Shown piece by piece: positions 270 through 56,101 of a stretch of 64,000 nucleotides of DNA. Numbering within the stretch: the first letter of the stretch is position 1; each line of letters opens with the position of its first letter. The notes under the pieces are model-generated. The model saw only the letters and a program-made list of their open reading frames with translations, ran no database searches and was not told the origin of the DNA. Origin of the DNA: Takakia lepidozioides. Its lineage: Eukaryota; Plantae; Bryophyta. The stretch lies in NCBI GenBank assembly GCA_030704615.1, contig CM060732.1, forward strand, positions 60,140,001-60,204,000, read 5' to 3'. A program made the translations under genes and the position numbers.

Positions 270-1131
270 TGCCGCTTGTAGATAGGTCATGGACACCAGC
301 CATTCATGCAACGGAGACTGAACAAGTTATTGGGAGACTCTCTCACATTCTGGGAGGACCCCAGCTGCTTGCATGCTGTCTGTGCGTTGAACAGGGTATC
401 ACGTGTACGTGTACGTTGCTATGACTTGGCTGCTCTTGGACGCTTTCCGACAGATCCTACCCGGGCCCCGCATCATGGGCCCCACTGTGAATGTGATCGT
501 GGCGTTCTCTTTAAACATGGCAGTAAAGATGTCAAGTACTCGTGAAAGTTGGAGTGCCGCCAAGCTCCAAGCTTTACACCCAGGAAGGATAGAGGAAAGA
601 GTCAGCGAACAAAAGCACTAGTTAGCTAGATAAAGTACTGTTTTGACAATCTGTGTCTTCGGATTTTGGTCACTTTTAGGGGATAAGGCCGGAAAACTGC
701 TGCAAGGTGACGCACAGACGATCATCGGGAGGCTCGGCGTTGTGAGTAAGTACATGTGAAATCAGCAAGTGCTGGCCAGAGTCACGTTTTCAAGTGGACC
801 GAAGGGAGCTGGACTGGTTTACATCCCAACTTCGACCGCATTCCGTGGATCATTCCTTTCTAGGTGCTAGGGAAAGAAGATCAGTAGGTGTGTGAGAGAT
901 AGGATGTGAGCTGAATTACTTCGGAAATCATGTAGCTTTTAGATCAGTTGATCAGTTGACAAGACTTCTCTTGAGATATTACTGCTGAAGTCTGTCTGCC
1001 TGCAAAGAGTTACTAGTACCCAAATCAGTACTTTCAGTCCTGTATGGTGTTGGGTCATGAGGGAGATAAAAGGCAGGAGTACTCCGCAAGGACGAACAGT
1101 TGGAAACTTACCAAGTCGAGGAGCTTCCAAA

Positions 1132-3316
1132 ATGGGTGGCTTCTCAGGCTCAGCAGTGCTTTTGGCACTCGGAGGGGTGCTCCTGCTCAGTGGGCAAGCA
1201 CACGGTGAACTTACTCCAGACTACTACGCCTCCACCTGCCCGCAGGTTCAGGCCATCGTCCAGTGCGAAATTTTGACGGCACTAAAGTCGGATGCGCGCA
1301 TAGCTGCATCACTGCTTCGCCTCCACTTTCATGATTGCTTTGTCCTCGTATGTTCCTCACATGGGAAAAAGGAATGGGCGTTTCTTTGTAGCATAACCTC
1401 TACAGAAATCACCAGGACTACAGTATATAGTGGTCACGATTGATTGTACTTCATGCATGTCTCTCTCTCTTAGTCGAATCGGAGGCGAGAACAATGGTGA
1501 GTGATGGATTACTTGCTGACCGGACTGCTCAAGGTTGGCTGTGCGCGACGAGCCTCTATCAATGCTATTAGCTAATCAACATTGACTACCATCTGAGACG
1601 TTGTCCATTGCGTTTCCATCCGAACTGAGTCCGAATTTCACATATATCTATAAATAAACATTTAGTTTCGAATGTTAATTGCGTTATGTTCAGTGATACT
1701 GATGAGGACTTGATGTGGATCCCACAGGGGTGTGACGCTTCTGTGTTACTAGATAGCACATCAGAATTCGCAACTGAAAAAACTTCAAAGGCCAACAATG
1801 GTTCACTGCGAGGGTTCGATGTGGTGGACACGATCAAGGCGGCAGTGGAGGAGTCGTGCCCCAACACAGTTTCTTGTGCTGACCTTTTGGCTATCATCTC
1901 CCTGCAAGCAGCCATCGTGGTAAGCTCAGTGCCATTGTGGTAGTACAATATGCTAGCTAATTCTTAAAGGTCACATAGTACATATATTTCATAACTAAGA
2001 TCGAATTTTTGCTGACTATAGAAATTATGGCGAGGCATGCATTCCCTTTATGTCGTCTTGGACCCACAGTCAACAACTTGACGCTCGATAACATTGCCGC
2101 TCTGCAATGAACTATCCTTGAGCTCTCACTCATCGTGGTTTAATGGTGTGGAGCTCCCTACGGCATGGACATCATGAATGTGTGAGTAAGTTGCAGAGAA
2201 ACTAGGTGAGGATAGCAGTGTATACCACAGACTTGTAGCGCGCAGTGCGAATTGATCCAGGGCCTAGAGTTTCAGATGTAATCCCGCCATTTGAAGAGAG
2301 TCTAGAGCCCTATTCATTGTGTGCCAGGTTCTCTACTTGCATGGTTTCCATGCACCCTTGGAAGAGCACGACCAATTCTTTAAAGAATATATCTAAGTGA
2401 ATTGCTGCGGGGAACATCACATTCAGGACAGTCATTGATTTTCTCGAATGCTTATTACGGTCTCTGATTGCACGACCCCTGTTGGTGGCTCCAGAGCGGT
2501 GGCCAAGGGTATGGCGTGCTTTTAGGCAGGAAGGACGGCTTCAATGCCAGTGCTACTGGTGCCAATGAAAACATACCTACTCCTTTCTTAAATGTATCCG
2601 GGCTTGTTGAAAAGTTCGCAGCTGTCAACCTATCTGAGCACGATATGGTCACTCTCTCAGGTGTGAGTACATGTTTAATGTTGCCCAGCTTCCCATTATT
2701 GGACGAGTCTCTTTACACTGACTAGTTGAATAGGTTCTCAAATGTTGCAGAGTTCTTGTCTCTATCTAGAAGGTTGTGGCATCTTCTGCAATCTAGACGT
2801 CATAGAAATGATCAATTCGCAAAACTAATATCGTGAAGGGCAGGTTCCCACACGATCGGTAGATCACGGTGCAAGAACATAGTGTCACGGTTGTATCCAT
2901 CAGTTGAAAACGGCCTCAATGCGACCTACGCCGAGTCCCTCGAAGATGTCTGCCCCAATAACGGTAATGAGAGTGTTGTCACCGATCTGGATCCAGTGAC
3001 TCCAAACCAGTTCGACAACCAGTACTACAAAAACTTGAGGAATGGCATAGGAGCCCTTCACACAGACACGGTTTTATGGACCACAAAGAGCAGCCAGCAC
3101 CTGGTAAAACATTACAGCAAGAACCTGACCTACTTCTGGACGGAGTTTGGTCGAAGTATGATCAAGATGGGTAACGCCGGGGTCCTCGAAGGCAGCGAGG
3201 GAGAGGTGCGGAGAAATTGCAGGGTGGTGAACTCAAATAACCCTTCAGTACTTGCTACAACTGCATCAGATGAGATCATGGCTGATTCACAGGAATCGCT
3301 TCTTGAATCCGAGTAA
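1132..3316 (+). CDS. Class III secretory peroxidase, 4 exons (1132-1347, 1728-1919, 2495-2660, 2844-3316)
   Basis: Signal peptide; distal His motif RLHFHDCFV|GCDAS; VSCAD; proximal His GSHTIG; FDNQYY; MIKMG...RRNC. GT-AG introns at the canonical positions (192- and 166-nt middle exons). Acidic C-terminal extension, possibly a vacuolar propeptide. Confidence 0.95.
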
Positions 3317-10075: not shown

Positions 10076-10969
10076 ATGGCGGACTATGAGGATGAATTGG
10101 ACTACATCCTCGAGGAGTTTCAAGACACAGAGTGCACTCAAGCATTCCCCGAGCCTGAAGCATTCCCGGACTGCGATGTTCCTTGTAGCCAAAAATTGCC
10201 AGTGAAGAGGAAGAATCCGGCACCACGGATAGACAAGGGGCGGCGGCCAATTGTGGACTTTTTCCACTTGAGTACCATGGCTACGGCCTACAATCGCCAT
10301 TTTTCTATGTACAACAAGGGCAGGAAGTAGGTCACCCAATTGATTCCATCCATGGTGTGGAATGCGATATACACACACTACCTAGTTCTAAGTCCACCCT
10401 AATTCTGAATTTGCTAAGGAGACTCTGAAGGACCGTCTACGGGAAGCGCTTAAGGAATTGAAAAAGTAGGCACATCAAATGAAGAGGATTCTAACAAGGC
10501 GGTGTTATAGAGTGATGAAATGTTGGTGAGGTTAAAGAGTACCGATGGCCATGCCACTCAGAATATACTGAAGAGGCGAAATAGCTTATTACAGTCAGGA
10601 AGTCCGTCCCCGATCCCATCAACAGCTTCTACTGGTGTGGGGGAATCAGATGCACCACCGCCTGTACCTAGTCTTGGCACCAAGTGTAGTCCTGCAATTT
10701 CTAATGCAACTTTAGGGTCTATGTCCTTAGGTGAAAAACCAATGAGCAAGTCTAAGATGCTCCAGCAGCAATCTCGCAGCATTGCTGCCATGGCCCAGCA
10801 ATTTCAGATGTCATCTGAAATCCATGACGCCCTCGTAGCTGCCAAATTGGAGATAAGCCAAGAGAAGCATATCAAGGTCAAAATCAGCAATTTAAAGCAG
10901 GGCCGAGACCTAGGTGTGATAAATGACGATGAGTTTAAGCTGCAGATTAAAGCTATCTTGCATTTGTAG
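10076..10969 (+). pseudogene. Harbinger accessory ORF (putative DNA-binding protein), disrupted
   Basis: Two ORF pieces (10076-10330, 10520-10969) lie inside the TIRs, convergent with the transposase (stops 8 bp apart). The C-terminus KQGRDLGVINDDEFKLQIKAIL is SHOCT-like. Identity is inferred mainly from position. Confidence 0.5.
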
Positions 10970-10977
10970 TGATCTGT

Positions 10978-11470
10978 CTAGTAGTCCCCGTCACAGCCGA
11001 AGTCTGCTGCCAGGTCACTGTGCTGGTCACCTATGATCTCATATGTAAAACCAAACCTTCTTCTTTGAAGAAACTTTGTGAGTAAAGTGGCAGATTGAAA
11101 CATGTGAGTGTATTTCTTTTTGGTGGAGTCGATGCGCTTCATCAAGCGCCTCCATTTTTTTTTCATGCCCCCTATCCCCCATTCAACTCGCACGCAATAG
11201 TCGGCATGCATCTTGTTGTAGGCCCTCACTGTTCCAAGTTCATCAACTTCTATAGGTACTTCGCGCCTGCCCGAATGTCAGAATGTCGCAAGATGGTAAC
11301 GTCATGAAAGGACCCCGGTATCCTGAATCTATGTAAATAAACAGTCCATGATGGTCGAACACGACTGTGCTGTTCATAGAGTAGATCTTCATACGGCCGG
11401 TAAACCATGTTTTGTGCTCTTGATTCTTCTAGGGACGACGAATTTTTGACTAGGGTAACGTCAATCAGGC
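10978..11470 (-). pseudogene. Harbinger transposase, 3' half
   Basis: YNKMHA..VRVEWGIGGMKKKWRRL (third catalytic residue region); the frame upstream reads LIDVTLVK up to the retroelement junction; contains frameshifts. Confidence 0.85.
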
Positions 11471-11797
11471 TGTCAAGTTATTTTACCACTAGTGTGAAAC
11501 TAGCTAGGAAATAGCTAGCTTTTACATATTGACATTTGGGATTGGCCCAAGTGTCAATCCAGGGGTCAAAGCAGATTTAGGCCCTGGAGTGGTTATCTTC
11601 ACAGCAAGCGCGGGAGGCTCATCTTTCTCGAGTTGAGCCTCACCGCGCCTAGCTATGGCGCCGTAGTGTGGATTCCCCATGGCGTGGGGTGCACTTGGCT
11701 TGACTTGTATTTGAGTGATGAGGTTATATATGCATGAGTTTATGCTTCAGCTTTGTGCGCTCGCATGAGCTTGTGCTTGTATTCTTCCTCTTTATCA
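11471..11797 (+). repeat. Terminal repeat A1 (327 bp, TG...CA)
   Basis: Identical to 23177-23503 apart from one substitution seen (CACAGC vs CACGGC). Confidence 0.95.
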
Positions 11798-11813
11798 CTC
11801 GAGAAAGATGAGC
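11797..11813 (+). promoter_or_regulatory. Putative self-priming primer-binding site
   Basis: ACTCGAGAAAGATGAGC is the exact reverse complement of 11617-11633 inside repeat A. No TGG-starting tRNA PBS is present here. It is followed by a 10-bp hairpin (11813-11839). Confidence 0.7.
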
Positions 11814-12479
11814 TCGTATCTATGAGTGCTAGATACGAGTTAGTTGTAGCACTTGTGGTTTTTGCTTGAGAATGAGAGAAACCAAGTTGTTATGCAAGGA
11901 GCACCGTGGAGCTCTTGGTTGTTAGAAGCGGAGGCGATGTGGGTTACGAGGTGGTAAACCTTGGCATTCGATCTTCAGCTTCAGAGATGAAAGCACCATA
12001 CTGTAGGTAATTCCAGAGCACCTTGATGGTTTCAGATTGTGTACATGCATGAGCAAGCACGATTGGGAAGAGGACCAGTCAAGAGCAGATTATAGTGGCT
12101 TTGGTGGCAAAGCTGAGAACTGGACTTGGGAATGCGAGCTGTCATTGTGTGAAGGATTGCAAGACCAAGCGAAAGGGCTGATTTGGCTTGGGGCAAATCA
12201 GTGCACTTTGTGGAGTATGGTGAGATTGGGTTTCAATCTCGAGCTTCAGCATTGAGAGGGCTCTTGTCATGGCAAGAGCAGGGCTGGAACAGGAGCTAAG
12301 AGGTGCGGCAAGGCCATGGAATGTGCACCTAGGGTTTCAGAGCTTGGAAGAAGAGCTCTTGCACCACAAGAGAAGTGTCTTGTGGCTGGAAATGTAAGCC
12401 TTAGGGTTTCAGGAGCTTGGCAAGGGCTGTGGAGTGCTTAGTCTTGTCTTAGAGAGCATCAAGGAGCCAATGAGCCAAG

Positions 12480-12900
12480 ATAGGGGGCTGATATCTCTTG
12501 TGTGAAGAGGTTGCATGTGTGGAGCATGTATTCAGCTCATTGAAGCTTCCATCTTCAAGCTTGGAGGGCAAGCAAGGAAGAGGGAAGGGCTGACTTCCCT
12601 TATGTGAGGGCAATGTATGTGTGGAGCATGCTATCAGCCTGGTGAAGGCTTGCACTTTTAGGTGTGGGAGTGCAAGAAAGGAAGGAAGGGGCTGGTTTCC
12701 CTGTAGGGCATGTAGAGCATGCTTTCAGCCTGCTGAAGCTTGTATTATCAGGTTTGTGGGTGCAAGAAATGAAGCAAAGGAGCTGATTCTCTTATGGTGA
12801 GAGTGGGGCATGTGTGGAGCATGCCTTCAGCCCATTGAGGCTCTTGTTTTCAAGCCTTAGAGAGCTAGAACGGAAGGTCTAGGGCTGGTTTCCACTTGGA
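12480..12900 (+). repeat. About four degenerate ~100-bp repeats in the retroelement leader
   Basis: Recurring GCATGTGTGGAGCATG..TCAGC..TGAAGCTT..CAAG..GAAGGGCTG near 12513, 12615, 12708 and 12808. Confidence 0.6.
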
Positions 12901-13335
12901 GTGAAAGAACAGCACTTGTAGGGCCTATGTGAGTTGGGGTTTCAACTTCAAGCTTGAAGGGAGCACAACTCTTGAAGCAACAGGTGTAGAGGGCTGGAAT
13001 AGGCTCTAAGACAGATGCTATGGCCAATGAGGGGAGTGCTTGAATGAGTGCTCACAAGGGCTGGGAACCAGCATGGCTTGGTTGTTTGCCATTGAGTTTA
13101 GTGGCGTGTTTGGGGAGGCTAAGTGAGAAAGAAGGCTTGGTTTGTGGCAACCACCTCATGGCTTAGGGCTACTATTGTGGTGTGTGGGAGCCGAAAGAGC
13201 AAGGATACCTTGCTGATTTCCTCACAGCCACCATAGCTCGGTGGAAAGAAGCCTAGAGTCCAAGAGACACAAACCCTAGCTTGGCGTGGCTAAACCCCTT
13301 GGAGAAATGGCTAAACTGCCAGAGCGGCCATGTGT

Positions 13336-14683
13336 GGGGCTGTGACAGGCTGTGGCAAGCTGTGACGGGCTGTGGCAGCTGTGACAGGCTGTGATGGGCT
13401 GTGTCAGGCTGTGACAGGCTGTGCCCAGTGGCCTTTGGGGCTGTGACGGGCTGTGCGGGGCTGTGACAGGCTGTGCCCTGAGGCCTGTGGGGCTGTGACG
13501 GGCTGTGACAGGCTGTGCCCAGTGGCCTGTGGGGCTGTGACGGGCTGTGATGGGCTGTGATGGGCTGTGCCCTGTGCCCTGTGGGGCTGTGACGGGCTGT
13601 GTCAGGCTGTGACAGGCTGTGCCCAGTGGCCTTTGGGGCTGTGAGGGGCTGTGACAGGCTGTGCCTGAGGCCTTTGGGGCTGTGACGGGCTGTGAGGGGC
13701 TGTGACAGGCTGTGCCCTGTGCCCTGTGGGGCTGTGACGGGCTGTGTCAGGCTGTGGCGAGCTGTGACGGGCTGTGCGGGGCTGTGACAGGCTGTGCCCT
13801 GAGGCCTGTGGGGCTGTGACGGGCTGTGACAGGCTATGCCCAGTGGCCTGTGGGGCTGTGACGGGCTGTAACAGGCTGTGGCAAGCTGTGACAGGCTGTG
13901 ATGGGCTGTGATGGGCTGTGACAGGCTGTGCCCTGTGCCCTGTGGGGCTGTGACGGGCTGTGTCAGGCTGTGACAGGCTGTGCCCAGTGGCCTTTGGGGC
14001 TGTGACGGGCTGTGACAGGCCGTGCCTGAGGCCTTTGGGGCTGTGACGGGCTGTGAGGGGCTGTGACAGGCTGTGCCTGTGCCCTGTGGGGCTGTGACGG
14101 GCTGTGTCAGGCTGTGGCGAGCTGTGACGGGCTATGATGGGCTGTGACAGGCTGTGCCCTGTGCCCTGTGGGGCTGTGGCAAGCTGTGACCGGCTGTGAT
14201 GGGCTGTGATGGGCTGTGACAGGCTGTGCCCTGTGCCCTGTGGTGCTGTGACGGGCTGTGTCAGGCTGTGACAGGCTGTGCCCAGTGGCCTTTGGGGCTG
14301 TGACGGGCTGTGGGGGCTGTGACAGGCTGTGCCCTGAGGCCTATGGGGCTGTGACGGGCTGTGACAGGCTGTGGCGAGCTGTGACAGGCTATGCCCATGG
14401 CCTTTGGGGCTGTGAGGGGCTGTGAGGGGCTGTGACAGGCCGTGCCTGAGGCCTTTGAGGCTGTGACGGGCTGTGAGGGGCTGTGACAGGCCGTGCCCAT
14501 GGCCTTTGGGGCTGTGACGGGCTGTGAGGGGCTGTGACAGGCCGTGCCTCGGGCCTTTGGGGCTGTGACGGGCTGTGAGGGGCTGTGACAGGCCGTGCCC
14601 ATGGCCTTTGGGGCTGTGACGGGCTGTGACGGGCCGTGCCTGAGGCCTTTGAGGCTGTGAGGGGCTGTGAGGGACTGTGACGG
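13336..14683 (+). repeat. Minisatellite array, ~10-bp unit GGCTGTGAC(A/G) with higher-order variants, in the retroelement leader
   Basis: About 1.35 kb of GGGCTGTGAC/AGGCTGTGCC units interspersed with GGCCTTTGGG and GCCCTGTGGG spacers. Confidence 0.95.
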
Positions 14684-15426
14684 CCTGACCAGTGAGCTGT
14701 GTGGGCCTGTGCTGGTCTGTGGTGGCCCGTGTTGACCTGTGGACGGCCTGTGCTGACTCGTGGAGGCACTGGTGGACTGCCTAAGGACTGGCATGTGGTC
14801 TGGAAGGCCGAATTTTGAAGCTCGTGGAGGGCGGTTTGAGGAGTATCTTCATGATATTCCCATGGTCATGCAAGTGAGGATAGAGAGGAGAGGCAGAGTG
14901 TTGGGATGAGAGCATGCTGGGGTTAGGCATTGCTTTAGCTTCTCTTCCTCGTAGTTTCCACCCTCTCATTAGGCCAAGACCTTTCCGTAGGTGGAGGCAA
15001 GAGTCAGTCCGGGTTTGGGCTGGGGTGTCCTTGCAGGAGCAACACCGTGGAGTTGTTTTTGGTGTGGGGGAGTTGTCGATCTGATTTCTTGTGTTTGGAT
15101 CCCCTCCATACCTGCATGCTTGACTGTGCGCCATGCTAGTTTTGTGTGGGCGCTTGTTTTTATAGGTGATTGGTCCGGATTTGATCACCGGCCAGTCCTA
15201 GAGCATGCTGTCGATGGTGAGGCTGGGGTGATGACCAGCCAGACCATCATTGTTTCTCCTGTGGTGAGGTTGGAGGTGATGACCAGCCAACCATAGGAGT
15301 GCTTGCGGTGGATGCAGGTACAGGTGTAGGCTATGTTAGGAACTTAGTATTCCAAACCATAAGCCGCAACAGGTTCTCTACCCGGTTACCTTGTGAAGAG
15401 GGGGTTAGGGACATGTTCATGACCGG

Positions 15427-18400
15427 TTGAGTGTCAACACGGAGGTGCCACTAGTTGCTGGGGACAGTGCCGGTTCGAGCACTAGCGATACTAGTGGGTA
15501 CACGAGACGAGGTGTGCGGTTTAGGCCACCTTCACCTCCTGTGTCTTCTACGGAAGGTTCTGATTCGGATTGTGAATCGGGAGGACTCATACCGGCGGTG
15601 CAAGTTGTTTCTTTGCCATTGTTGTGGGACACAATGGAGGAGATGTATGGAGCTACCAAGGGGCCACGAAGGTACTCTGGGGCGGTGGGCACCATTGAGT
15701 TGGATGATTTTATCCAAGAGTTTGATAGTTGGTGTGATTTGCAGCAAATGCGCAATCCACAACTATTTACGCCGTTCATGGCATGGAAAGGGCTGTTTCA
15801 GCACCTTGAGGGGCCGCCTATGGATGATTACCATGAGTTCAGGCGGGGGCATGAGGTTGAGATCGAGGAGTGGAGGATGTACTGGTCACCCGACTATGTC
15901 TCCATCACTAGGGGCACTAGAGCCACGAGGGCAGTGGCTACACCTGCCGCTGCACCGGCAGCTTCAGCAAGCAGCAGTGGGACTGGTGGTACAGTAGCTA
16001 CGACGTCCACCCAAGCCACTACCGCACCAGCACTAGCACCCGTGCCTGCCTTCAACCCTGTTGTGGAGTTCTTCGAAGAGTTGAGAGGGAACTACCAAGG
16101 GGTGAGGACAGAGAAGTTGCGGAGCTTGCAAGAGTTCCAACGGAAGCCGACCGAGAGCTTGAGGGAGGCTTTCACTCGCATGAGGCGCTTGATAAATGTA
16201 ACCCAAGGGGTTACGGAAGCTCAGGCAGTCCAATTCTGGTATGGGATATTGGACAAGGAGCTGAGGAGAAGGGTGCGGGATGCAACTCTCCTACAAGCGG
16301 CCCAACCCACCTTAGCAAATGTGTTTTTGCTGGCAGAGCGGATAGAGCTCAACATGGTGGAGGAACGAGTGGTCATGGTGGGATTTGCTAAGGAGACACC
16401 ACGGGGTAGTGGTGCTCCTAGCCAACCACTACCTCAACGTGCTCAAGGCAACAAGGGGGCTCAGGTGAAGCTCAGGGAAGGGCAGAGAGGACCTCAGATG
16501 CAGGGGTCTCTCCCTTCATTTGCTGGCCAACAACGGGCGGATGTGGTGTGCTGGACATGTGGAGGACCCCATGTCAAGAAGGATTGTCCAGAGGGAGGCA
16601 AAGGGCCGGCACATGCACAGCCTGCACAGTTACAGTGTGGGCATTGTGGCAAACACGGGCATGGAGAGGCTCAGTGTTATGGTTTGCATCCTGAGTTGCG
16701 CCCAGGCCAGTTCCAAGGGAACAATGGTGGCCGGGGGCGAGGTGGAGCAGCCCAGAGGGGACGAGGTGGCCAGCCACGAGGCCAAGGGCAAGCTCAACGT
16801 GGCCAAGGACGCGGAGGTCAGGGTGTTGACCAAGGCATGGCCAACCGGCTTCAGCAGCTAGAGCAGAGGCTCGCTGCCATGGCTACAGCTCAGGTGGTAC
16901 CGGCTCTAAGGCCGGATGGTCCACCTCCTGCTCCTGAGGGAGGAGATATGGGAGGCATGGGATTCATGTGTGGAGCAGCACTACCACTAGTGCAGGTGGA
17001 GTCTGCTGCAGCCGTGACTCGAGGAGCAGCACGAGTTCCTGAGCCACGAGGTGCAGAGGTGGAGTTGGATCCACAGCGTGGGGAGGCAAGCCGTCAGGCT
17101 AGGCTTCCTCAGTCATTCACATTGGCGGAGACAGTGTCGACGCCATCCATGGCACCTAGTTCTCGCCCGACTGTTACCGAGGCGGAGGTTACTATGCCAT
17201 TGGGGAGAGCTACACGGGTAGCACCACTACCTAGTGTTGCCAAGGCTACGGCAGCTAGTGTGCTGCTAGGAGCGGCCACATCTGTGTGCCAGGCTCCATT
17301 GTTCTCGGCTACCATGATTGCGACGCCGGGGGTAAGACCAGCTGAGGTGTTCAGGCTGGCAGCTACACTCTGTGAGAGTGGGGAGGTTACTTCATCTTCT
17401 GCGGAGATAGTGGGAGGTGTAGTGCCGGAGGGATCCTCGGATTTGAGGGTCAAGACTGCCACGGCGGCGCCATGGCAAGCTGCAGCTGCCAGGTTGATGG
17501 AGCTGCCAGCTAGGCCAGCCATTGAGCGCGCCATGGTGACACCTGGAGTTGTCATGTTAGACAACCAGGATGGCATTTTCTGTTTGAGTGGACCGGCAGG
17601 CAAGAGGTACCGGCCACTGCGAGTCTTGTTGGACTCGGGAGCTCAGCCACTGATGCTGGGCAGAGCTGCTATTGCAGGCTTGGGCCTCACGGAGGCGGAT
17701 ATGGAGCCTTGTCCTTTCCAGATACAGACGTCTCTGGGAGGATCGGAGCAGGCTCGGGGCATGACACGGCATGAGTTGGCTATCAGACTACGGCCGGATC
17801 ACCCTACAGATGGCTCAGTGATGCGAGCCAAGGCCATTGTGACAGACGCAGTCTCATACGATGTCCTGGTTGGTGGGGCAGTGTTGTACCCCATGGGCTT
17901 CACCCTGGATTTTTGGGAGGAGTCAGCTTCCTATAGGCCTGCATGGCAGTCAGGGGAGGGCCGGCGTGTGCAGCTCCCTGTGACGTTCATAGGAGGAGTT
18001 GCGGTTGCCCAGCGAGGCAAGATGCCGACACTAGCAGCATTCACAGCGGCAGTGAGTTGGCCTAGAGAGTTGCTTGAGGGCAATGCTCATTCAGAGGATG
18101 TACCACCTCCGGGAGAGCAGGATGACATGTATGGTATGGCGGAGTTGCCTACCATGGTTGCTCAGACTCCATTGTGGGGCACGAGCAAGGATTTGCAGCG
18201 GGATGCTGATCGACGGGTGCAACAAGCCTGGGTGGAGGCTTTTGTACCGTCAGGAGAGGAGGAGAGTGTGGGGATTGCACCAGGACCACCTCAATTGTCT
18301 CCATTGGACACCACACCTATTGTGTGGCAGTCTCCGGATGAAGGCATTTGTCTTCTGGACTTGTTTGGCGGGATCAGCACCGGATTGGCTGCTGTGTTAC

Positions 18401-19594
18401 AGGCAGGTGTACGAGTTCGGCGTTACCTGTATGTGGAGAGGGATGAGACTGCACGACGCGTTTCACTTCGCCATGTTGCTCAGTTGGTGCAGCGGTACCC
18501 TGAGTTGTTGTCGGTGTCTGCAATTCGTGGATATCAGCAGGCCTTGCCAGCAGACATTTCGTTGCTGGGGGCGCAGGATTTGGAGCGGGTTGGCTCCATT
18601 GATCTGGTAGTGGCAGGTTGGCCCTGCCAAGGGCATTCATCAGCCGGGCATGGCAATGGATTGCGAGACTCGAGGTCGGGTCTGTTTTGGGAGATGGTGC
18701 GGGTTTTGCGCCACTTGCAGCTTCATCAAGCTGTATCTCCAGCATACATCTTGGAGAATGTGCCACTGATGGGCGATTCTCGGGCCAGGGTGATGGCCAG
18801 TGTGCATCAAGTCCGGTCGTGGCTTGGGTCAGCAGTGTTGCTAGGATGCAGCTACAGTGGGGTCACGGGCTCATCGTCCACGGCTATGGTGGACTAACAT
18901 GATGCCACCCGCACTGCTCAAGCGTGCATTTGATGGGGTGCAGCGGCCAGCACATCTCACAGTGGATAACATTCTGGACACAGGGAGGCAGTCTCAACGT
19001 GTGAGACACGATGACCGTTCGCCTTTGGCAGTGGTCAACAAGGTGGGTCAACCACGAGCAGCATTACCTACACTGCTCAGCTTCCCAGGATCGCATGCTT
19101 TCCGGGATAGTGGACCTGGCCTCCTGTGGGATGCTCAGTTGCAGCAGTTAGTGGAGCCTAATGCTGACGAGCGTGAGCGGGCAATGGGTTTTACCACTGG
19201 TACCACGGCGGTGTCGTCTCTTTCTGAGGCATCACGTCGTCAAGTGTTGGGGCAAGCAATGGATCTCAATTGCTTGACCTGGATTATCAGCTTGGCTCTA
19301 GCTGAGCAACGCAGAGTGCGGAATACACTTCCCTCAATGGTCTCTCTGCCTACCGAGACGGTACAGGCAGTGAGTGGGGGCGAGCATATGAGGACCACGG
19401 GGTGCATGCATCCATGGCACACGTGGGAGGTGCTCGAGGTTCAGAGGGAGTTGGCAGCCAAGGCGGCTGTGATGGATGAGGTTGGGGATTCTTCTCGAGT
19501 TGAGGAGGTCCTCAAGGATGAGATGATGGGGCAGGATGATGCCTTGTCATTGACTGAGCAGGTAGGGAGTACTGCTCAAGAGGTTGCAGCATAG
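15427..19594 (+). CDS. Gag - aspartic protease - DNMT3-like C5 cytosine methyltransferase polyprotein (first ATG 15634; +1 frameshift at ~18844 in this copy)
   Basis: Gag MHR-like FQRKPTESLREAFTRM; Zn knuckles CWTCGGPHVKKDC and CGHCGKHGHGEAQC; protease LLDSGA; MTase motifs LDLFGGI, GWPCQ, LENV, AHRPRLWWTN, ERAMGF, RQVLGQAM. Copy 2 reads through the frameshift position in a single frame (LLDAAIVGS). Confidence 0.9.
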
Positions 19595-22500
19595 CAACCA
19601 CGGGACGCGTCCTCTACCTCTAAGCCCACTGGACTTAAGGTTGTAGTTACGGAGGACAATTGGGAGCCTGACATTGGACCCATTGTCACCGGAGGAGAGA
19701 GACGACGTATACGGCGGTTCCTGAGGGCTTACAGGAATTGCTTTGCCTTCAGTTTGAAGGACTTGGGAGCACTGAAGGGTCAAGAGATCCGTATTGAGTT
19801 GGCCACTGACACGCCAATCTTTCGGAGACCCTATAGATACAGTGACATGGAGAGGTCTTTGATTCAGATGAGGACTCAAGATCTCTGGGAGGCAGGTTTG
19901 GTGGAGCTCTCTGGTGGAGAGTATGCTTCAGCCACAGTGATGCCAGCCAAGAAGGATGTCTATGGCAATTGGACGGAGAGACGTATGTGCGGTGATTACC
20001 GGCCTGTAAATCGTCAGACCAAGTCCGATAAGTATGCCATGCCAACACCAGAGGAGATCTTTGATGCCATCGGGCATGCTAAGGCCTTTAGCACTTTGGA
20101 TTTACGATCCGGATATCACCAGTTGCCAATCAAGGAGGCGGACAAGCAGAAGACGGCATTCTGGGGGATCAATGAGCACGGCAAGGATTGCCTATATCAG
20201 TGGCGGTTCTTACCATTTGGGCTTAAGAATGCTCCTGCAGAGTTTCAGAGAGTCATGGATAGGATTCTAGCAGGGGTGGACTTTGCTCGGTGCTACATAG
20301 ATGACATCATCATCTTTAGTGTTACGATGGAGGAGCATGAGAGACACCTTCAGGTGGTATTGGAGCGCTTGAGAGCGCACGGATTGAAGTTGCATCCGGG
20401 GAAGTGCAAGTTTTTCCACAACCAGATTGAGTATCTGGGTCACATGATATATCCTGGAGGATTGGGGGTACAGCAGACTAAGGTAGAGGCCATTGCACAA
20501 ATTCCACGCCCCACGGATGTGAGCCGAGTTCGAGCTTTCATGGGGTTGGCAAACTATTATAGACGGTTTGTCAAGGGATTTAGTACCATTGCAAAGGCTC
20601 TAACCAAGCTGACCAAGGTGGACCAGGAGTGGCAGTGGGAAGATGAGCAGGAACGAGCTTTTCAAGAGCTCAAGGCGAGGTTGACCTCGGCGCCTATCTT
20701 GAGACGACCTATCAGGGGGCGTCCCTTTCAGCTGCATACGGATTGGAGCATGCTGGGGCTTGGAGCGGTGCTCACACAGGTGGATGATGAGGGAAGAGAG
20801 TTCGTAGTGGCTTACGCTAGCCGCTCGAACAACGCTGCAGAGGCTAAGTACAGCTCATATGAGGGAGAGTGCTTAGCTGCAGTGTGGGCCGTGGCACACT
20901 TCAGGTGCTATCTATACGGCAATCTTTTCACCCTTGTCACGGATCACCAGCCACTCAAGTGGTTGATGGAGTCAGACAAGCTTACAGGGAAGCTTGCACG
21001 GTGGGCACTTATACTCCAGGAGTATGACTTTCAGGTTGTGCATCGACCGGGTTTGGTCAATCGGGATGCGGATGGATTGAGTCGCAATCCATGCATGAGC
21101 CAGCAGGATGACACTGGAGCTCGGTGGCATGGTGAGACGGACGAGGAGATGGTGCCGGGATGGCACGCATCTGCATTTTTGTGTATCTTGGCATCGGGAG
21201 GTCAGATTGGACCTACAACAGGGATGACTGTAGACGGAGTGTCTGAGGACCCTGAGGCTAGTGATGAGCTAGGTGGTGCCAGAGATATACATGAGGATTC
21301 GGCTGTGTTGGACTACCTCCGCACGGGAGACACGGCAGCCATTGTGACTGCCAGGGAGAGGGATCGGATCCTGCAACGAGCCAAGAGGTTCAAGTGGGAG
21401 GGGATACACCTACTTCGAGTGTGGGAGGGTGGTCGGGTGAGGATTGTGCCTCACCCCACACAGCGTGCACGGTTAGTGCGGCATGCCCATGAGGAGTTGG
21501 GGCATTTTGGAGTGCGACGCACTCACAGTTTACTGCAGGGGCAGTATTGGTGGCGTGGTATGCATACAGAGGTGCAACAGTTTGTGGCTAGGTGCATGGT
21601 GTGTGACAGGGTGCGTGCTTCATTCAACGCCCCTACACCACAGTTGCATCCTTTACCTATCATGGGATTGGGCTACAGGTGGAGTCTTGACTTCGCAGGA
21701 CCGTTGCCACTGACTATGCGCCACCACAGATATGTGTTGGTGATGGTGGAGCACTTCTCCAAGTGGATTGAGTTGGTTCCATTGCCTGACAAGGCTAGTG
21801 AGGGGGCTGCGTATGCATTCTTGGATCGTGTGCTTAGCCGATTTGGTGCTCCAGCTGAGGTACTCACGGACCAAGGGAGAGAGTTCTTGGGGGAGTTTCA
21901 GGCTTTGTGTGATAAAGCCTTGATAGACCACCGCACCACTTCTCGGGATCATCCTGAGGCCGATGGCTTAGCAGAGAGAGTTGTTCAGACGGTGAAGAGG
22001 GGTTTGCGCAAGTATGGCTTGCAGAAGGGACACCTAGGAGATTGGGATCTTCAGGTTCCTTGGTTAGCCATGGGCTACAGGTTCAGCAAACAAGCATCAC
22101 TTGCCTCCTTCTCACCATATTTCCTTCTCTTTGGCCGAGAGCCGGATTTGCCTGCAGCCATTCGTAGGGACACTGCTCAAGTCCTTAACCTTGACGATCC
22201 GGACGTGTGGGTACGTGCATGTGATCAGCGTGCAGAGTTGTTCAAGAAAGTCATGCCCATGGCTTTTGAGAACCTTGCCATTGCACAGCACCGTGATACG
22301 TTGAGGTATGCCACTATACGTGGTGGAGGATATCGTCCTGGGGTTCGGAGGTTTAGCCCTGGTGACTATGTTTATTTGCAGCAGACTGCTCCTACGACTC
22401 TGGATGTTACTGCAGGGCGTGTTATTCTGAGGGTTCGAGAGGTGTTGCCCTCAGGGGTCCTGATCTTGGAGGGTCGGGATGGCATGACTTGGAAGGACCA

Positions 22501-22729
22501 TGTGCGTAATTGTGCGCCATGTCACCTTCCCAATGTCGATGGCAGAGTTGACCCAAACTTGGCAGTGGTACCTGCAGGTTTGAGGTGCATGCTCTGTGGG
22601 TCTGCCAAAGGGGCAGCCACCATGCTGGTGTGTGATCGATGCTCAAGGGGTTGGCATATGGGATGCTTGACACCACCTCTTGAGAAGGTTCCTGACGGAG
22701 ATTGGTTGTGTCCACACTGCTTGGGATAG
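19595..22729 (+). CDS. Pol: reverse transcriptase - RNase H - DDE integrase - PHD finger; in frame with the upstream ORF across a single UAG
   Basis: RT motifs RMCGDYR, LDLRSGYHQ, PFGLKNAP, YIDD; RNase H TDWS...E...TDH; integrase HHCC plus D(SLDF), D(TDQG), E(LAER); C-terminal C4HC3 PHD. The frame is open from 19595, upstream of the TTG called by the ORF track. Confidence 0.95.
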   Translation, partial: QPRDASSTSKPTGLKVVVTEDNWEPDIGPIVTGGERRRIRRFLRAYRNCFAFSLKDLGALKGQEIRIELATDTPIFRRPYRYSDMERSLIQMRTQDLWEAGLVELSGGEYASATVMPAKKDVYGNWTERRMCGDYRPVNRQTKSDKYAMPTPEEIFDAIGHAKAFSTLDLRSGYHQLPIKEADKQKTAFWGINEHGKDCLYQWRFLPFGLKNAPAEFQRVMDRILAGVDFARCYIDDIIIFSVTMEEHERHLQVVLERLRAHGLKLHPGKCKFFHNQIEYLGHMIYPGGLGVQQTKVEAIAQIPRPTDVSRVRAFMGLANYYRRFVKGFSTIAKALTKLTKVDQEWQWEDEQERAFQELKARLTSAPILRRPIRGRPFQLHTDWSMLGLGAVLTQVDDEGREFVVAYASRSNNAAEAKYSSYEGECLAAVWAVAHFRCYLYGNLFTLVTDHQPLKWLMESDKLTGKLARWALILQEYDFQVVHRPGLVNRDADGLSRNPCMSQQDDTGARWHGETDEEMVPGWHASAFLCILASGGQIGPTTGMTVDGVSEDPEASDELGGARDIHEDSAVLDYLRTGDTAAIVTARERDRILQRAKRFKWEGIHLLRVWEGGRVRIVPHPTQRARLVRHAHEELGHFGVRRTHSLLQGQYWWRGMHTEVQQFVARCMVCDRVRASFNAPTPQLHPLPIMGLGYRWSLDFAGPLPLTMRHHRYVLVMVEHFSKWIELVPLPDKASEGAAYAFLDRVLSRFGAPAEVLTDQGREFLGEFQALCDKALIDHRTTSRDHPEADGLAERVVQTVKRGLRKYGLQKGHLGDWDLQVPWLAMGYRFSKQASLASFSPYFLLFGREPDLPAAIRRDTAQVLNLDDPDVWVRACDQRAELFKKVMPMAFENLAIAQHRDTLRYATIRGGGYRPGVRRFSPGDYVYLQQTAPTTLDVTAGRVILRVREVLPSGVLILEGRDGMTWKDHVRNCAPCHLPNVDGRVDPNLAVVPAGLRCMLCGSAKGAATMLVCDRCSRGWHMGCLTPPLEKVPDGDWLCPHCLG

Positions 22730-22975
22730 TGGCAGTGGACATGACTGGAGGCAGCTAACAAGACATGGGAGGCCAAGCTCATAGGAGTCAATACATGAGA
22801 TCCCAAGCTCAAGTTCACAGGTTGCAAGACGGCGACTAACGATGGGGCTCTTGCACCCGGCCTCTTGATCTATCGAGTTTGAGTGTAGTAGGGATAGTGG
22901 TGGAGGACTTAGTGAGGCTATGGTCACTATCACATCTTGTGGCTACCTGGACTTAGAGGGACCTAAGCACCAGCT

Positions 22976-22985
22976 AGGGGGGCGA
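22976..22985 (+). promoter_or_regulatory. Polypurine tract
   Basis: AGGGGGGCGA immediately before T-TGTGTGG (start of repeat B1); copy 2 has AGGGGGACGA at the same place. Confidence 0.75.
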
Positions 22986-22986
22986 T

Positions 22987-23174
22987 TGTGTGGACTAGTG
23001 ACTGCCATAGTGGGCAGCGTAGTGGCAGCCTAGTGACTGACTAGTTGTAGCCTAGTGGTTGGACTAGTGGCTGGACTAGTGGTAGACTAGTGGTATACTA
23101 GTGTGTGGTGTGCACATGTGTTGTGTGGTTTTGGACAGCGATGTAGTTGTGTAGCGATATGTATGCGCACGACA
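22987..23174 (+). repeat. Terminal repeat B1 (188 bp, TG...CA)
   Basis: Matches 23505-23692 with one substitution seen; rich in ACTAGTGG units. Confidence 0.95.
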
Positions 23175-23176
23175 GC

Positions 23177-23503
23177 TGTCAAGTTATTTTACCACTAGTG
23201 TGAAACTAGCTAGGAAATAGCTAGCTTTTACATATTGACATTTGGGATTGGCCCAAGTGTCAATCCAGGGGTCAAAGCAGATTTAGGCCCTGGAGTGGTT
23301 ATCTTCACGGCAAGCGCGGGAGGCTCATCTTTCTCGAGTTGAGCCTCACCGCGCCTAGCTATGGCGCCGTAGTGTGGATTCCCCATGGCGTGGGGTGCAC
23401 TTGGCTTGACTTGTATTTGAGTGATGAGGTTATATATGCATGAGTTTATGCTTCAGCTTTGTGCGCTCGCATGAGCTTGTGCTTGTATTCTTCCTCTTTA
23501 TCA
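23177..23503 (+). repeat. Terminal repeat A2 (327 bp)
   Basis: Copy of 11471-11797; joined to B1 by GC and to B2 by T. Confidence 0.95.
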
Positions 23504-23504
23504 T

Positions 23505-23692
23505 TGTGTGGACTAGTGACTGCCATAGTGGGCAGCGTAGTGGCAGCCTAGTGACTGACTAGTTGTAGCCTAGTGGTTGGACTAGTGGTTGGACTAGTGG
23601 TAGACTAGTGGTATACTAGTGTGTGGTGTGCACATGTGTTGTGTGGTTTTGGACAGCGATGTAGTTGTGTAGCGATATGTATGCGCACGACA
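23505..23692 (+). repeat. Terminal repeat B2 (188 bp), right end of the element
   Basis: Copy of B1; directly followed by the TSD AGGC and resumed Harbinger transposase sequence. Confidence 0.95.
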
Positions 23693-24283
23693 AGGCCGAC
23701 ATATCATAGAAAGTCAGGTATATGAGTGGCCAGCCTAGCTCGCTCTTCTGGGATTGGCTAGCGGATTTCGTTTCCAATTGCGTGGTTTATGCAGGAAGAG
23801 ATGAACAGGGCATCAATATCCCACAACGAACTTCTCGACCAATTCCACATAAATGAATCGTAAAGAGTCACGTTGTCATGCTTGAGGTTTAAAATGAAAT
23901 TGAGTAATCGTTGGTGAGAGGTGAGCTTAGATGGCCTGCCAGTGCAAAGTTTTTCTTCGCCCGTCAATCGAGCATTTGAGATGATAGTCGGCACTACCAA
24001 TGCAGCTAGCTCCTCAAACTCTTCTACACTAAAATTAGTGAGCTGCTTGAAAAGTGTAGGTATGGCTCGCATTGTGGCAAGCACATCCCCGACTCCAACC
24101 TCTCGGTCCATAGACTGCCCATAGCCCTCCTCCATTTCGTTAAAATTGAACAAATCTATCGAACTAGAAACAACTAGCGCAGCTTAAAGAAACACGGAAG
24201 CTCTCCATGTCGTCGAACAGATCATTATCACTTGAAGAAGATGAGCTATCATCGCTTGAGGGAGATGATGAGGAGCCTGCCAT
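23693..24283 (-). pseudogene. Harbinger transposase, 5' half
   Basis: ATG at 24283 (MAGSSSS...); FKQLTNFSVEEFEEL and GRPSKLTSHQRLLNFI (HTH_Tnp_4-like); in-frame stops; joins the 3' half as YVG|LIDVT once the retroelement and one TSD are removed. Confidence 0.85.
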
Positions 24284-25244
24284 GTTGTCTGATCGTCACA
24301 GAGACTCTCAGCCCTTAAACCCTAACGCTCAAAAGTCAGATGAAGCAGCCATTGCCTTCATCCCCAGTTTATGATTTGGTGCCCTCTTTTCTGACTTCGT
24401 GCCCATTTTTCTGCACTTTACGGATTTACTCAAACTCAGACCCGTAACTCGGGTCCAAAGAGGGTACCAAACTCAGGCTCACTTTACGAATAATTCTATT
24501 ATGTGAGCACAATTTAAGATTTCCATATACAATAAATTTATATGCTCACATTAATTTATACATATGAGCATTTACTTTTTGTATTTTGTTTAGGTTGGAG
24601 TTTGGATCGGGATCAAGTTCGGCATCCTGTAGTTCTCTAGCAAACCACATATTATACTATCAATGTGTGGAACCAAGCCCGAGCCTATTTCCAAACCTAA
24701 GCCGAACCTATACCCGAAGCCATATTATTTGTGCCAAACCTATAAATCTCGTCACACCTATAGGTTTGATTAGATCCGAACCTAGAACAATTTGGCCCCT
24801 TACACGCTCACATGCTCGCTCACCACTGCTCACCCCCCTTAACTTTGAACCCCTTAGGGCCAAACTCTGATCCCTGACTTCCCGGCCTCTTTGTTACTCT
24901 TCCCTCTCTAGACTTTCTCACTTTCGCAAGTTCGCTTTTAGCCAGGTTTCATAGATGGTAGATCGTCTCTTAGATTTATGCCCCGGCTGTTGTCATGTGG
25001 TCTGGTTCTTAGCAGCTGTTTCCAGTGAACCATGACTGGTGTCCCTTGCTATCCATTTTGGTGTTATGGGAGTTTAACCCCGATTGTACTGTCTTATGGC
25101 CTCTCACGAGGTCATTTTTTCCTCGTTCTAATTTGAGTAACAGGGCTCCGTTCCCCCTTTAAACAAATATATATATACTAAATTTATTACAGGTAATAAT
25201 ATAATTACATTTATAATGTGCTTTGCAATATATATATGTATATT

Positions 25245-55163: not shown

Positions 55164-55841
55164 TGTCGTGCGCATACATATCGCTACACTACTACATCGC
55201 TGTCCAAAACCACACAACACATGTGCACACCACACACTAGTATACCACTAGTCCACCTCTAGTCCAACCACTAGTCCAATCACTAGGCTACAACTAGTCA
55301 GTCACTAGGCTGCCACTATGTTGCCCACTATGGCAATCACTAGTCCACACAATGATAAAGAAGAATAATACAAGCACAAGCTCATGCGAGCTCACAAAGC
55401 TGAAGCATAAACTCATGCATATATAACCTCATCACTCAAATACAAGTCAAGCCAAATGTACTCCACGCCATGGGAAATCCACACTACGGCGCCATAGCTA
55501 GGCGCGGTGAGGCTCAACTTGAGAAGGATGAGCCTCCCGCGCTTGCCGTGAAAATAACCACTCCAGGGCCTAAATCTGCCTTGACCTGTGGATTGACACT
55601 TGGGCCAATCCCAAATGTCAATATGTAAAATCTAGCTATTTTCTAGCTCACACTAGTGGTAAAATAACTTGACAGCTGTCGTGCGCATACATATCGCTAC
55701 ACAACTACATCGCTGTCCAAAACCACACAACACATGTGCACACCACACACTAGTATACCACTAGTCCTACTACTAGGCTACAACTAGTCAGTCACTAGGC
55801 TGCCATTATGCTGCCCACTATGGCAGTCACTAGTCTACACA
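55164..55841 (-). repeat. B-GC-A-T-B terminal block of copy 2 (B2 55164-55351, A2 55353-55674, B1 55677-55841)
   Basis: Same order and the same junctions (GACAGCTGTC and TTTATCATTGTGTG) as copy 1. Confidence 0.95.
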
Positions 55842-56101
55842 ATCGTCCCCCTAGCTGGTGCTTAGGTCCCTCTAAGTTCAGGTAGCCACAAGATGTGATA
55901 GTTACCATAGCCTCACTAAGTCCTCCACCGCTGTCTCTACTACACTCAAACTCGATAGATCAAGAGGCCGGGTGCAAGAGTTGCCCCATCGTTAGTCGCC
56001 GTCTTGCAACCTGTGAACTTGAGTTTGGGATCTCGTGTATTGACTCCTATGAGTTTGGCCTCCCATGTCTTATTAACTGCCTCCAGTCATGTCCACTGCC
56101 A

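Follow-up and report, generated by a model that had tools for sequence, protein, structure and literature searches.

Permuted terminal repeats of a Gypsy-type element in Takakia lepidozioides suggest that head-to-tail joined cDNA may be the substrate of integration

In retroviruses and LTR retrotransposons, integrase joins to host DNA the very ends that reverse transcriptase (RT) has produced, and 2-LTR circles are regarded as by-products. Split direct repeats in the order A1-B1-A2-B2 have been described for PAT, Ngaro and TOC elements, which are tyrosine-recombinase retrotransposons (PMC4157794). For KnitGypsy-Dnmt3 of Klebsormidium nitens, the legend of Fig. 4c reports a DIRS-element repeat structure together with Gypsy domains and leaves it unexplained, and in the same paper DNMT capture is regarded as confined to the lineage of K. 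nitens (de Mendoza et al. 2018, Nat Commun 9:1341, PMC5890265). Cleavage of the palindromic 2-LTR junction has been reported for the integrases of PFV (PMC1180852) and HIV-1 (PMC1905944, PMC4372172), and Tf1/Sushi and plant Tcn1 Gypsy elements are described as self-priming, with a primer binding site (PBS) that is complementary not to a tRNA but to sequence close to the 5' end of the RNA (PMC6317226).

In this study, we analysed a stretch of 64,000 nucleotides of the T. lepidozioides genome (the window). It contains a Gypsy-type element of 12.2 kb (11471-23692) whose left end is a repeat A (327 bp) alone and whose right end reads polypurine tract (PPT), B (189 bp), GC, A, B. This layout, with AGGC on both sides, had been proposed in a preliminary description and is confirmed by the repeat coordinates; the length of B includes a leading T, previously counted apart (188 + T). 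The features of the element and of a second copy are as follows.

11467-11470, + strand: left copy of the target-site duplication (TSD), AGGC; 4-bp TSDs are confirmed in relatives
11471-11797, + strand: A1, 327 bp, left terminus TGTCAAG..., 99.7% identical to A2
11617-11632, + strand: GCTCATCTTTCTCGAG, self-primer site within A1 that probably lies at or close to the 5' end of the RNA
11798-11813, + strand: PBS of the self-priming type (CTCGAGAAAGATGAGC), directly after A1
12484-12832, + strand: tandem repeats of about 100 bp in the leader
13337-14687, + strand: 1.35-kb satellite with a 10-bp period (GGGCTGTGAC) in the leader, present in copy 2 as well
15409-18897, + strand: ORF encoding the N-terminal portion of a C5 DNA methyltransferase, with further matches, both weak, to Gag and aspartic protease
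18845-19594, + strand: continuation of the polyprotein in another frame, with an in-frame TAG at its end that is common to copy 2
19595-22729, + strand: RT, RNase H, integrase (H2C2 zinc finger and DDE core) and C-terminal PHD finger
22976-22985, + strand: PPT AGGGGGGCGA, directly 5' of B1, conserved just before B in each relative with a located B1
22986-23174, + strand: B1, 189 bp, from the repeat comparison with B2
23171-23180, + strand: GACA-GC-TGTC palindrome spanning the junction of B1 and A2, a candidate att site for cleavage by integrase
23175-23176: GC spacer between B1 and A2
23177-23503, + strand: A2, 327 bp, from the repeat comparison with A1
23504-23692, + strand: B2, 189 bp, right terminus ...CACGACA; host read depth falls about 1000-fold after 23692
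23693-23696, + strand: right copy of the TSD, AGGC
55164-64000, - strand: second, older copy, 93-95% identical, with a 1.3-kb deletion in RT and its left end beyond the window
about 55164-55843, - strand: right-end block of copy 2

A1 and A2 differ at 1 position, as do B1 and B2, and chance cannot account for repeats of 327 and 189 bp at more than 99% identity. The element starts with TGTC and ends with GACA, and past 23692 the host read depth drops from about 1,060,000 to about 500. The Pol region has the Gypsy order PR-RT-RNase H-IN with Gypsy-type RT and RNase H, as indicated by successive Pfam matches to RVT_1 (4.6e-33), RT_RNaseH (1.3e-35), Integrase_H2C2 (2.3e-16) and rve (1.7e-13), and by a weak Asp_protease_2 match upstream of RT. 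Alignment to the Ty3 (7q5b) and PFV (3l2q) integrases indicates that the D,D,E residues are kept, and a PHD finger (1.8e-10) takes the place of a chromodomain at the integrase C-terminus. The DDE integrase and the short (4-bp) TSD are also those of a Gypsy element, whereas the two identical terminal LTRs bounded by PBS and PPT are replaced by A only on the left and B-NN-A-B on the right. The ORF at 15409-18897, which stops at a 1-nt frameshift relative to copy 2, contains a C5 DNA methyltransferase match (PF00145, 4.3e-12, aa 1049-1126) inside the Gag-Pol polyprotein. This domain, absent from the preliminary description, lies in a region conserved in relatives, and related database proteins also carry PF00145.

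The second copy in the window has the same junctions as the first (PPT|TTGTG, GACA-GC-TGTC and TTATCA|TTGTG). The flank after its B2 is unrelated to the right flank of the first copy, which rules out a segmental duplication, one of the two findings that would have undone the original proposal. The other, a majority of copies with conventional LTRs, did not appear either: among relatives from metagenome and MAG contigs, which are old, decayed copies with Pol 60-84% identical, 0 of 16 left ends had B in front of A. PPT-B-NN-A-B was found in 17 independent insertions belonging to four LTR sequence lineages (13 from a census of metagenome loci, L030, L082 and the two copies in the window). For the host as a whole, we used contigs of public reads from runs X1 and X4. 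The sequence in front of the A-start is varied (22 contigs from X1 and X4, agreement 0.4), whereas the A end is followed by the PBS in 11 contigs of X1 (agreement 0.99) and 9 of X4 (0.92), and the B-start is preceded by the PPT in 12 contigs of X1 (0.85) and 2 of X4 (0.97). In these contigs the A end adjoins only the PBS or B, the PBS being the only non-B sequence found there, and the B-start adjoins only the PPT or A.

Since recombination can yield tandem LTR structures and the window holds just two copies, we considered whether the layout could have come from a conventional LTR element through rearrangement after integration, nesting of a solo LTR or segmental duplication, or could be an artefact of assembly. 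This explanation is hardly credible and was rejected: the two window copies share identical junctions within different flanks, the layout recurs in independent read sets and in four LTR lineages from other assemblies, TSDs flank the A-start and the B-end, and no conventional copy was seen. Thus, as had been suspected, the layout is a family trait rather than a one-off rearrangement, common to the two window copies, the host reads and the relatives.

The GC of the TSD AGGC is also the internal spacer, so that one element alone could not prove a 4-bp TSD. In relatives, however, TSD and spacer differ (CATA and GC in L076, AATC and AT in L077, AAGG and GC in L018, TCTC and AT in L005), which indicates that the 4-bp TSD is real and that the AGGC/GC match in the window is due to chance. 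The TSD is perfect in 9 of 12 complete elements including the window element, with 3/4 matching positions in two others and 2/4 in one, and the spacer at B|NN|A is 2 nt in 19 of 19 independent junctions, unrelated to the TSD. To our knowledge, tyrosine recombinases make no such 4-bp duplications, and PAT, Ngaro and TOC elements make no TSD. These data bear on a route of the DIRS/PAT/Ngaro type, in which a tyrosine recombinase, unrecognised here or supplied in trans, would recombine a circle with the target. Such a route would account for the A1...B1-A2-B2 layout, which is that described for PAT, Ngaro and TOC (PMC4157794, and the legend on SymbioDIRS in PMC5890265). It is nevertheless very improbable and close to refuted, given the 9 of 12 perfect TSDs, the intact DDE integrase and the TGTC...GACA termini, as in integrase substrates. 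Furthermore, no match to Phage_integrase (PF00589) or other recombinase families was found at E<=5 in the nine stop-to-stop ORFs scanned (126-1162 aa, from both strands of the element, which has further ORFs of at least 100 aa). The element thus departs from the DIRS order in two marks, having a DDE integrase and, in the scanned ORFs, no match to a tyrosine recombinase, and having a TSD, and the earlier reading of a DDE integrase with a TSD and without a recognisable tyrosine recombinase is borne out.

The ends of the reverse-transcribed DNA can be predicted from the PBS and the PPT. The self-primer site and the PBS are complementary at 16 of 16 positions, for which random 16-mers typically give 9, and they pair in the MFE fold (z -8.65), where the folds join the 5' end to the PBS. 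The pairing persists with different sequence in relatives, at 16/16 in L018 and at 15/16 with compensatory changes in L063. Judged from this covariation between lineages, the PBS is a Tf1-like self-primer site, not a tRNA site; its self-primer nature had been missed previously. The start of the minus strand would be fixed at the end of A by the self-primer PBS and that of the plus strand at the start of B by the PPT, so that the RT product should be B-NN-A...B-NN-A. In the LTR so defined, A1 makes up the 3' portion, comprising the end of U3 followed by R-U5, and B1 the 5' portion, with the start of U3. The boundaries here and in relatives support the earlier delimitation of this LTR as B-NN-A (there B-GC-A). 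The insertions instead start with A (TGTC), end with B (GACA) and are flanked by a 4-bp TSD, and the full form keeps an internal A|B joint, at which the predicted RT ends are abutted. RT ends other than TG...CA occur in the L081/L082 lineage, yet its insertions still have the ends TGTC...GACA.

We therefore slightly favour a model in which inserted copies are circular permutations of the reverse-transcribed DNA and the integrase, instead of using the cDNA ends, opens head-to-tail joined (2-LTR-circle-like) cDNA at GACA-NN-TGTC inside the LTR. First, ligation or an end-to-end template switch by RT would connect the two cDNA ends. In the upstream LTR, the integrase would then cut both strands of the palindrome after CA, so that each end would have a recessed CA-3'OH and a 5' overhang of 2 nt, as in retroviral DNA after 3' processing. 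Strand transfer staggered by 4 bp would give A-int-B-NN-A-B; cutting of a one-LTR form, or of both sites, would give A-int-B. A-int-B-NN-A-B would be the sole form able to replicate again, because only there is a copy of R kept downstream. A 2-LTR circle is the putative intermediate, but in its simplest version this model is at odds with one count: random choice between two identical palindromes predicts equal numbers of A-int-B-NN-A-B and its mirror form A-B-NN-A-int-B, which were found in 5 and 0, respectively, of the 12 complete elements.

The preliminary description had taken the A|B junction for cDNA ends joined without loss or gain, and in 13 of 15 independent insertions it corresponds exactly to the RT ends placed side by side. 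The remaining two have extra bases (about 20 nt ending in PPT-like CGA in L005, 1 nt in L015), as expected if the joint is remade in each cycle, and indel variants at the joint were not seen in the host read contigs. Cellular end joining would be expected to leave less tidy joints. This precision and uniformity favour an RT-made joint over ligation. With the integrase step unchanged, the plus strand could reach the end of A, switch end-to-end onto the start of B on the same or another cDNA and run past the next palindrome, and integrase would then cut this open circle or concatemer. The CGA in L005 fits an untrimmed plus-strand primer, and in L078 RT copied far into an untrimmed self-primer, which indicates that run-on synthesis occurs in the family. 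However, the final sequence would be identical to that from ligation, and an RT-made joint by itself leaves the missing mirror form unexplained; we regard this alternative as rather unlikely.

The metagenome census also contained about 22 independent loci with A-int-B only, compared with the 13 carrying the full right-end block. These loci misfit the simplest circle model, and may mean that another substrate is often used, that deletion between B1 and B2 is frequent, or that the B-A-B loop was skipped in some metagenome assemblies. Alternatively, A-int-B would be the main product, arising from integrase cleavage at the internal half-sites of a one-LTR circle or of plain linear cDNA, and A...B-A-B a minority by-product that happens to be the sole replicable form. 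Both ends are present in seven A-int-B elements; the TSD is perfect in four of these, matches at 3/4 positions in two and at 2/4 in one. However, B1/B2 deletion (115-bp repeats 450 bp apart) would yield the same structure with the TSD kept, loop-skipping in assembly could do so too, and both window copies, with bridging depth across A|B in the host reads, show that among young copies the full form is common. We consider this second alternative improbable.

Returning to internal opening of joined cDNA, RT ends and integration ends are separate in all copies analysed, which span lineages with about 30-40% divergence in Pol protein. The DDE integrase must thus find and cleave a site that lies 190-330 bp within the cDNA, and the cDNA-end joint is carried into the chromosome as a fossil. 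It is a nearly even guess that an old Gypsy clade across streptophytes, from Klebsormidium-like algae to liverworts, never integrates via RT ends, its retroviral-type integrase working like an IS-circle transposase, with obligatory cleavage of head-to-tail joined cDNA at an internal palindromic att site. If so, the circular or joined form, long held to be a retroviral dead end, would be the true precursor from which an entire lineage of retroelements integrates. The family, which carries a cytosine methyltransferase and a PHD finger, provides a natural system to test joined or circular DNA as the normal substrate of an integrase, and would show a possible origin of split direct repeats without a tyrosine recombinase. 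Software that searches for LTRs as a pair of identical terminal repeats would probably misplace the boundaries of such elements.

Among the known systems that resemble the element, KnitGypsy-Dnmt3 has the same set of Gypsy domains, a polyprotein that includes a Dnmt-type C5 methyltransferase and, according to the figure legend, repeats in the order A-coding-B-A-B (PMC5890265). The layout itself is thus already in print since 2018, and the earlier statement that no such Gypsy lineage was known does not hold against that legend. The main-text passages of that account give no TSD, PBS/PPT, palindrome or mechanism. New here are the Tf1-like self-primer PBS with covariation, the GACA-NN-TGTC palindrome at B|NN|A, and the kept D,D,E without a tyrosine recombinase. 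K. nitens proteins, which may not be KnitGypsy-Dnmt3 itself, are 43-47% identical to the Takakia Pol, and the nearest named relatives are liverwort proteins (65-79% identical). These liverwort relatives carry the methyltransferase too, and its capture is therefore wider than the reported single algal lineage.

With Tf1/Sushi and Tcn1 the element appears to share the self-complementary PBS (16/16, covariation, folds), but it differs in its permuted termini, in the additional DNMT and in a PHD finger that replaces the chromodomain. As in the reported PFV and HIV-1 reactions, a retroviral-type DDE integrase would act on a palindrome of two abutted CA ends and turn circular DNA into integration-competent ends. 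As described for those viruses, however, the palindrome is the joint of the RT ends and the provirus is conventional, whereas in Takakia the palindrome is internal to the RT-defined LTR, the inserted copy retains the RT-end joint, and this is apparently the only route used. PAT, Ngaro and TOC have the same order of terminal and internal repeats, usually read as circular DNA opened inside a repeat, as we infer here; the Takakia element has split direct repeats in the same sense, but they encode a tyrosine recombinase and it encodes a DDE integrase, with TGTC...GACA ends and Gypsy-type RT/RNase H. In bacterial IS3/IS30-type circle junctions, inverted repeats abut with a spacer of 2-3 bp. There, too, a DDE enzyme acts on two abutted circle ends with a short spacer before insertion with a short TSD, although these are DNA transposons that involve no reverse transcription and whose proteins are unrelated at the family level.

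The split arrangement of terminal repeats in the Gypsy element at 11471-23692 (copy 1, plus strand) is real, family-wide and old. Self-comparison of 10500-24700 for repeat pairs, extended by BLAST, gave two pairs of direct repeats: A, first called at 11469-11768 and 23175-23474 and 327 bp long after extension, and B, called at 22985-23174 and 23503-23692. A1 and A2 differ by one base, as do B1 and B2.

Features of copy 1 (plus strand), from sequence reading
directly before 11471: left flank, ending AGGC
11471-11797: A1, TGTCAAG...TTTATCA
directly after A1: CTCGAGAAAGATGAGC...
between A1 and the coding part: leader of 3.6 kb, with satellites
after the leader: coding sequence of 7.3 kb
22976-22985: PPT, AGGGGGGCGA
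22986-23174: B1, TTGTGTGG...CACGACA
between B1 (ending at 23174) and A2 (starting at 23177): GC spacer
23177-23503: A2
23504-23692: B2
directly after 23692: AGGC, then right flank

We write this layout as A-int-B-NN-A-B (the full form), where int is the internal region and NN a 2-nt spacer; AGGC is the 4-bp target duplication (TSD). The leader carries, between PBS and gag, a 1.35-kb satellite with a 10-bp period (GGGCTGTGAC, about 130 units, 13337-14687), which is also present in an older relative of the element on the minus strand (copy 2, at about 62765-63220), and tandem repeats of about 100 bp lie at 12484-12832. GC content is 0.45 in the flank versus 0.55 in the element. Upstream, at 952-3313, are exons that encode a peroxidase of the plant type (PF00141, 1.1e-23), which makes a green plant or alga the likely host.

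The ORFs of copy 1 give weak matches to Gag and protease, and further match a partial C5 DNA methyltransferase (DNMT), RT, RNase H, an H2C2 and rve integrase, and a PHD finger. The integrase keeps D, D and E when aligned with the Ty3 and PFV integrases, and no tyrosine recombinase was matched at E<=5 in the nine ORFs scanned on both strands of the element, in line with the preliminary description, which had recognised none. The cytosine DNMT domain, absent from the preliminary description, occupies aa 1049-1126 of the ORF at 15409-18897, where a 1-nt insertion in copy 1 relative to copy 2, near 18843, causes a frameshift inside the DNMT region. In both copies a TAG in frame (19592-19594) intervenes between the DNMT part and RT; this codon would be an inherited defect or, alternatively, a stop subject to read-through. 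Whereas chromoviruses have a chromodomain at the C-terminus of integrase, this element has the PHD finger there (22592-22726, at the end of the Pol ORF), which suggests targeting via a histone mark.

Copy 2 extends on the minus strand from 55164 to the window end, is 93-95% identical to copy 1 and has a 1.3-kb deletion in RT. All four junctions of copy 1 recur in it, in keeping with the identical junctions that the preliminary description had reported. The sequence beyond its B2 is unrelated, so copy 2 is an independent insertion and segmental duplication is ruled out as the source of both copies. Beyond the window, a Pol search yielded 80 metagenome loci at 60-84% identity, together with two contigs (L081 and L082, 68% Pol identity) in a MAG labelled Synechococcales, which are likely eukaryotic contamination of a cyanobacterial bin; no match to Pol was found in viral contigs. 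By self-BLAST, three loci (L051, L076 and L077) have both the A and the B pair, three (L005, L018 and L053) have A pairs, and ten further loci have B pairs spaced 444-572 bp apart. An exact-pattern scan of metagenome contigs for the B/GC/A junction gave no match. A census of these relatives, which are old copies with broken ORFs, used six junction-spanning queries and grouped loci with common flanks as one insertion. It revealed 13 independent insertions with PPT-B-NN-A-B followed by flank; with the two window copies, the metagenome locus L030, whose LTR sequence is different, and L082, a third LTR lineage in which B1 and B2 are 100% identical, the total is 17, which bears out the earlier view of the layout as a family trait. 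Conventional copies, with B-NN-A at both ends, were also sought, and B-NN preceded A at none of 16 independent left ends, copy 1 included; at one of the left ends (L051) the first 10 nt of A are missing. The TSD is perfect in nine of the 12 two-ended elements (AGGC, TCTC, TGTG, AAGG, TACA, ATTA, TACA, CATA and AATC), with three of four bases matching in two others and two of four in one. B and A are separated by 2 nt in every case (GC in 10, AC in 6, AT in 2, GT in 1), and no variant is more than two transitions away from GC. In the relatives this spacer bears no relation to the TSD, which rules out the GC as part of a 2-bp TSD.

Where reverse transcription would start and end can be read from the PPT and PBS. 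The PPT (CTAGGGGGG..) lies directly 5' of B in every lineage. The sequence after A does not begin with TGG as in a tRNA-type PBS; instead, the 16 nt following A1 in copy 1 match the reverse complement of A positions 147-162 without a mismatch, and relatives have another 16-mer there, whose partner in A lies at positions about 161-164. Against a baseline in which 16-mers drawn at random from the same loci typically score 9, this self-primer pairing is 16/16 in L018, 15/16 with compensatory changes in L063 and 11-13 of 16 in nine more decayed copies. Of the 17 left ends tested, four (L005, L012, L021 and L065) have a best match of only 8-9/16, located elsewhere in A, as is an 11/16 match in L047. 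When RNA is folded from the primer site, at or near which (11617 in copy 1) the transcript is predicted to begin, its 5' end base-pairs with the PBS (z -8.65 in copy 1 and -2.72 in L018). In the available text of PMC6317226, self-priming is described in Tf1/Sushi and, as a prediction, in plant Tcn1 elements, and the pairing here matches it. With the PPT before B and a self-primer PBS after A, the reverse-transcribed LTR should be B-NN-A, in agreement with the B-GC-A proposed before. A-T-B as the true LTR (TG...CA) was rejected, since the PPT abuts the start of B and the PBS the end of A in all lineages, and since A-B never occurs at a left end. In the L081/L082 lineage the reverse-transcription ends are not TG...CA, yet the insertion ends stay TGTC...GACA. 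A 127-bp terminal overlap of L081 was read as an assembler artefact of a collapsed repeat rather than as a sign of a circle. At the single locus represented by L078 and L080, A2 runs into an inverted copy of A positions 1 to about 179 (3700-3878 in L078), beyond which lies host flank. This inverted block extends as far as the primer site's 3' end, and the inverted A-start ends ...GACA at the flank. It resembles a relic of plus-strand synthesis that copied the self-primer untrimmed at its 5' side, and the A-start half-site may have served there as right terminus.

Taken together, these junctions show an uncoupling of reverse-transcription ends from integration ends, with the inserted full form permuted circularly relative to the cDNA that is expected. 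In the simplest scenario, that of the preliminary description, the two cDNA ends would be joined, integrase would cut one internal palindrome, and the opened molecule would be inserted into the target; judged from sequence, we lean slightly towards this route. B-NN-A reads GACA-NN-TGTC, a perfect 10-bp palindrome in copy 1; if both strands were cut 3' of CA, the products would be recessed at CA-3'OH and carry a 2-nt 5' overhang. The A/B joint had been described as reverse-transcription ends abutted exactly, and it does consist of the PBS-defined end of A and the PPT-defined start of B in 13 of 15 independent insertions, the exceptions being L005, where about 20 bases are added and end in CGA, as the tail of the PPT does, and L015, which is 1 nt longer. 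Such tidiness favours a variant of this route with the joint made by RT itself in an end-to-end template switch, which we nevertheless consider rather improbable. The joint was also followed in the host by aligning Logan contigs of public runs to it and to the right end. Contig depth sums to about 10^6 across the element versus about 500 past 23692, and no indel variants were listed at the A/B joint. Unrelated sequence precedes the A-start in 22 contigs of run X4 (agreement 0.4). Among the ends listed, the sole loose sequence after the A end is the PBS (11 contigs in run X1, 0.99; 9 in X4, 0.92), and the sole one before the B-start is the PPT (12 in X1, 0.85; 2 in X4, 0.97). From this pattern, the A-start adjoins host DNA in Takakia lepidozioides and the reverse-transcription ends do not, which holds among the ends listed, with rare exceptions possible. 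The joined-cDNA interpretation, still a proposal, is sensible and has gained support.

Two features are not explained by the simple two-LTR-circle model. In a circle with two LTRs the palindrome would be present twice, in equivalent form, yet the mirror form A-B-NN-A-int-B was found in none of 12 complete elements, versus five with the full form. The frequency of A-int-B, which ends right after the first B, is not explained either; it was counted at about 22 independent loci, a number that may be inflated as metagenome assemblers can skip the B-A-B loop. These relatives lack A2-B2 and still have 4-bp TSDs; they may derive from one-LTR forms, double cutting or later deletion between B1 and B2, or may partly reflect assembly. 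A copy of R follows the coding region in none but the full form, which alone should therefore replicate. This ability would account for its persistence, but not for the absence of dead mirror insertions.

The preliminary description knew of no Gypsy lineage with this layout; in fact it had already been published, in a remark of one line, the legend to Fig. 4c of de Mendoza et al. 2018 reporting DIRS-like repeats with Gypsy domains for KnitGypsy-Dnmt3 of Klebsormidium nitens. The available text of that paper offers no explanation for the layout, and a literature search for the name found no other paper. Among titles and abstract beginnings, a search for split direct repeats, Gypsy and integrase returned no DDE-integrase element with this layout, the matches being tyrosine-recombinase elements, Penelope-like elements, general TE reviews and curation guides. 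The closest named relatives of this Pol are from liverworts (Calypogeia 77%, Riccia 79%, Marchantia 65-78%), K. nitens proteins are 43-47% identical to it, and database proteins from Marchantia polymorpha related to it combine RT with PF00145. The liverwort relatives and these Marchantia proteins indicate that the DNMT-bearing Gypsy clade is wider than the reported K. nitens lineage. What would be new here is a variant of LTR-retrotransposon integration, which merits experiment. The recessed ends predicted for the cut palindrome would be shaped like retroviral ends after 3' processing, and cutting of a palindromic 2-LTR junction by integrase is reported, in the source text available, for PFV and HIV-1.
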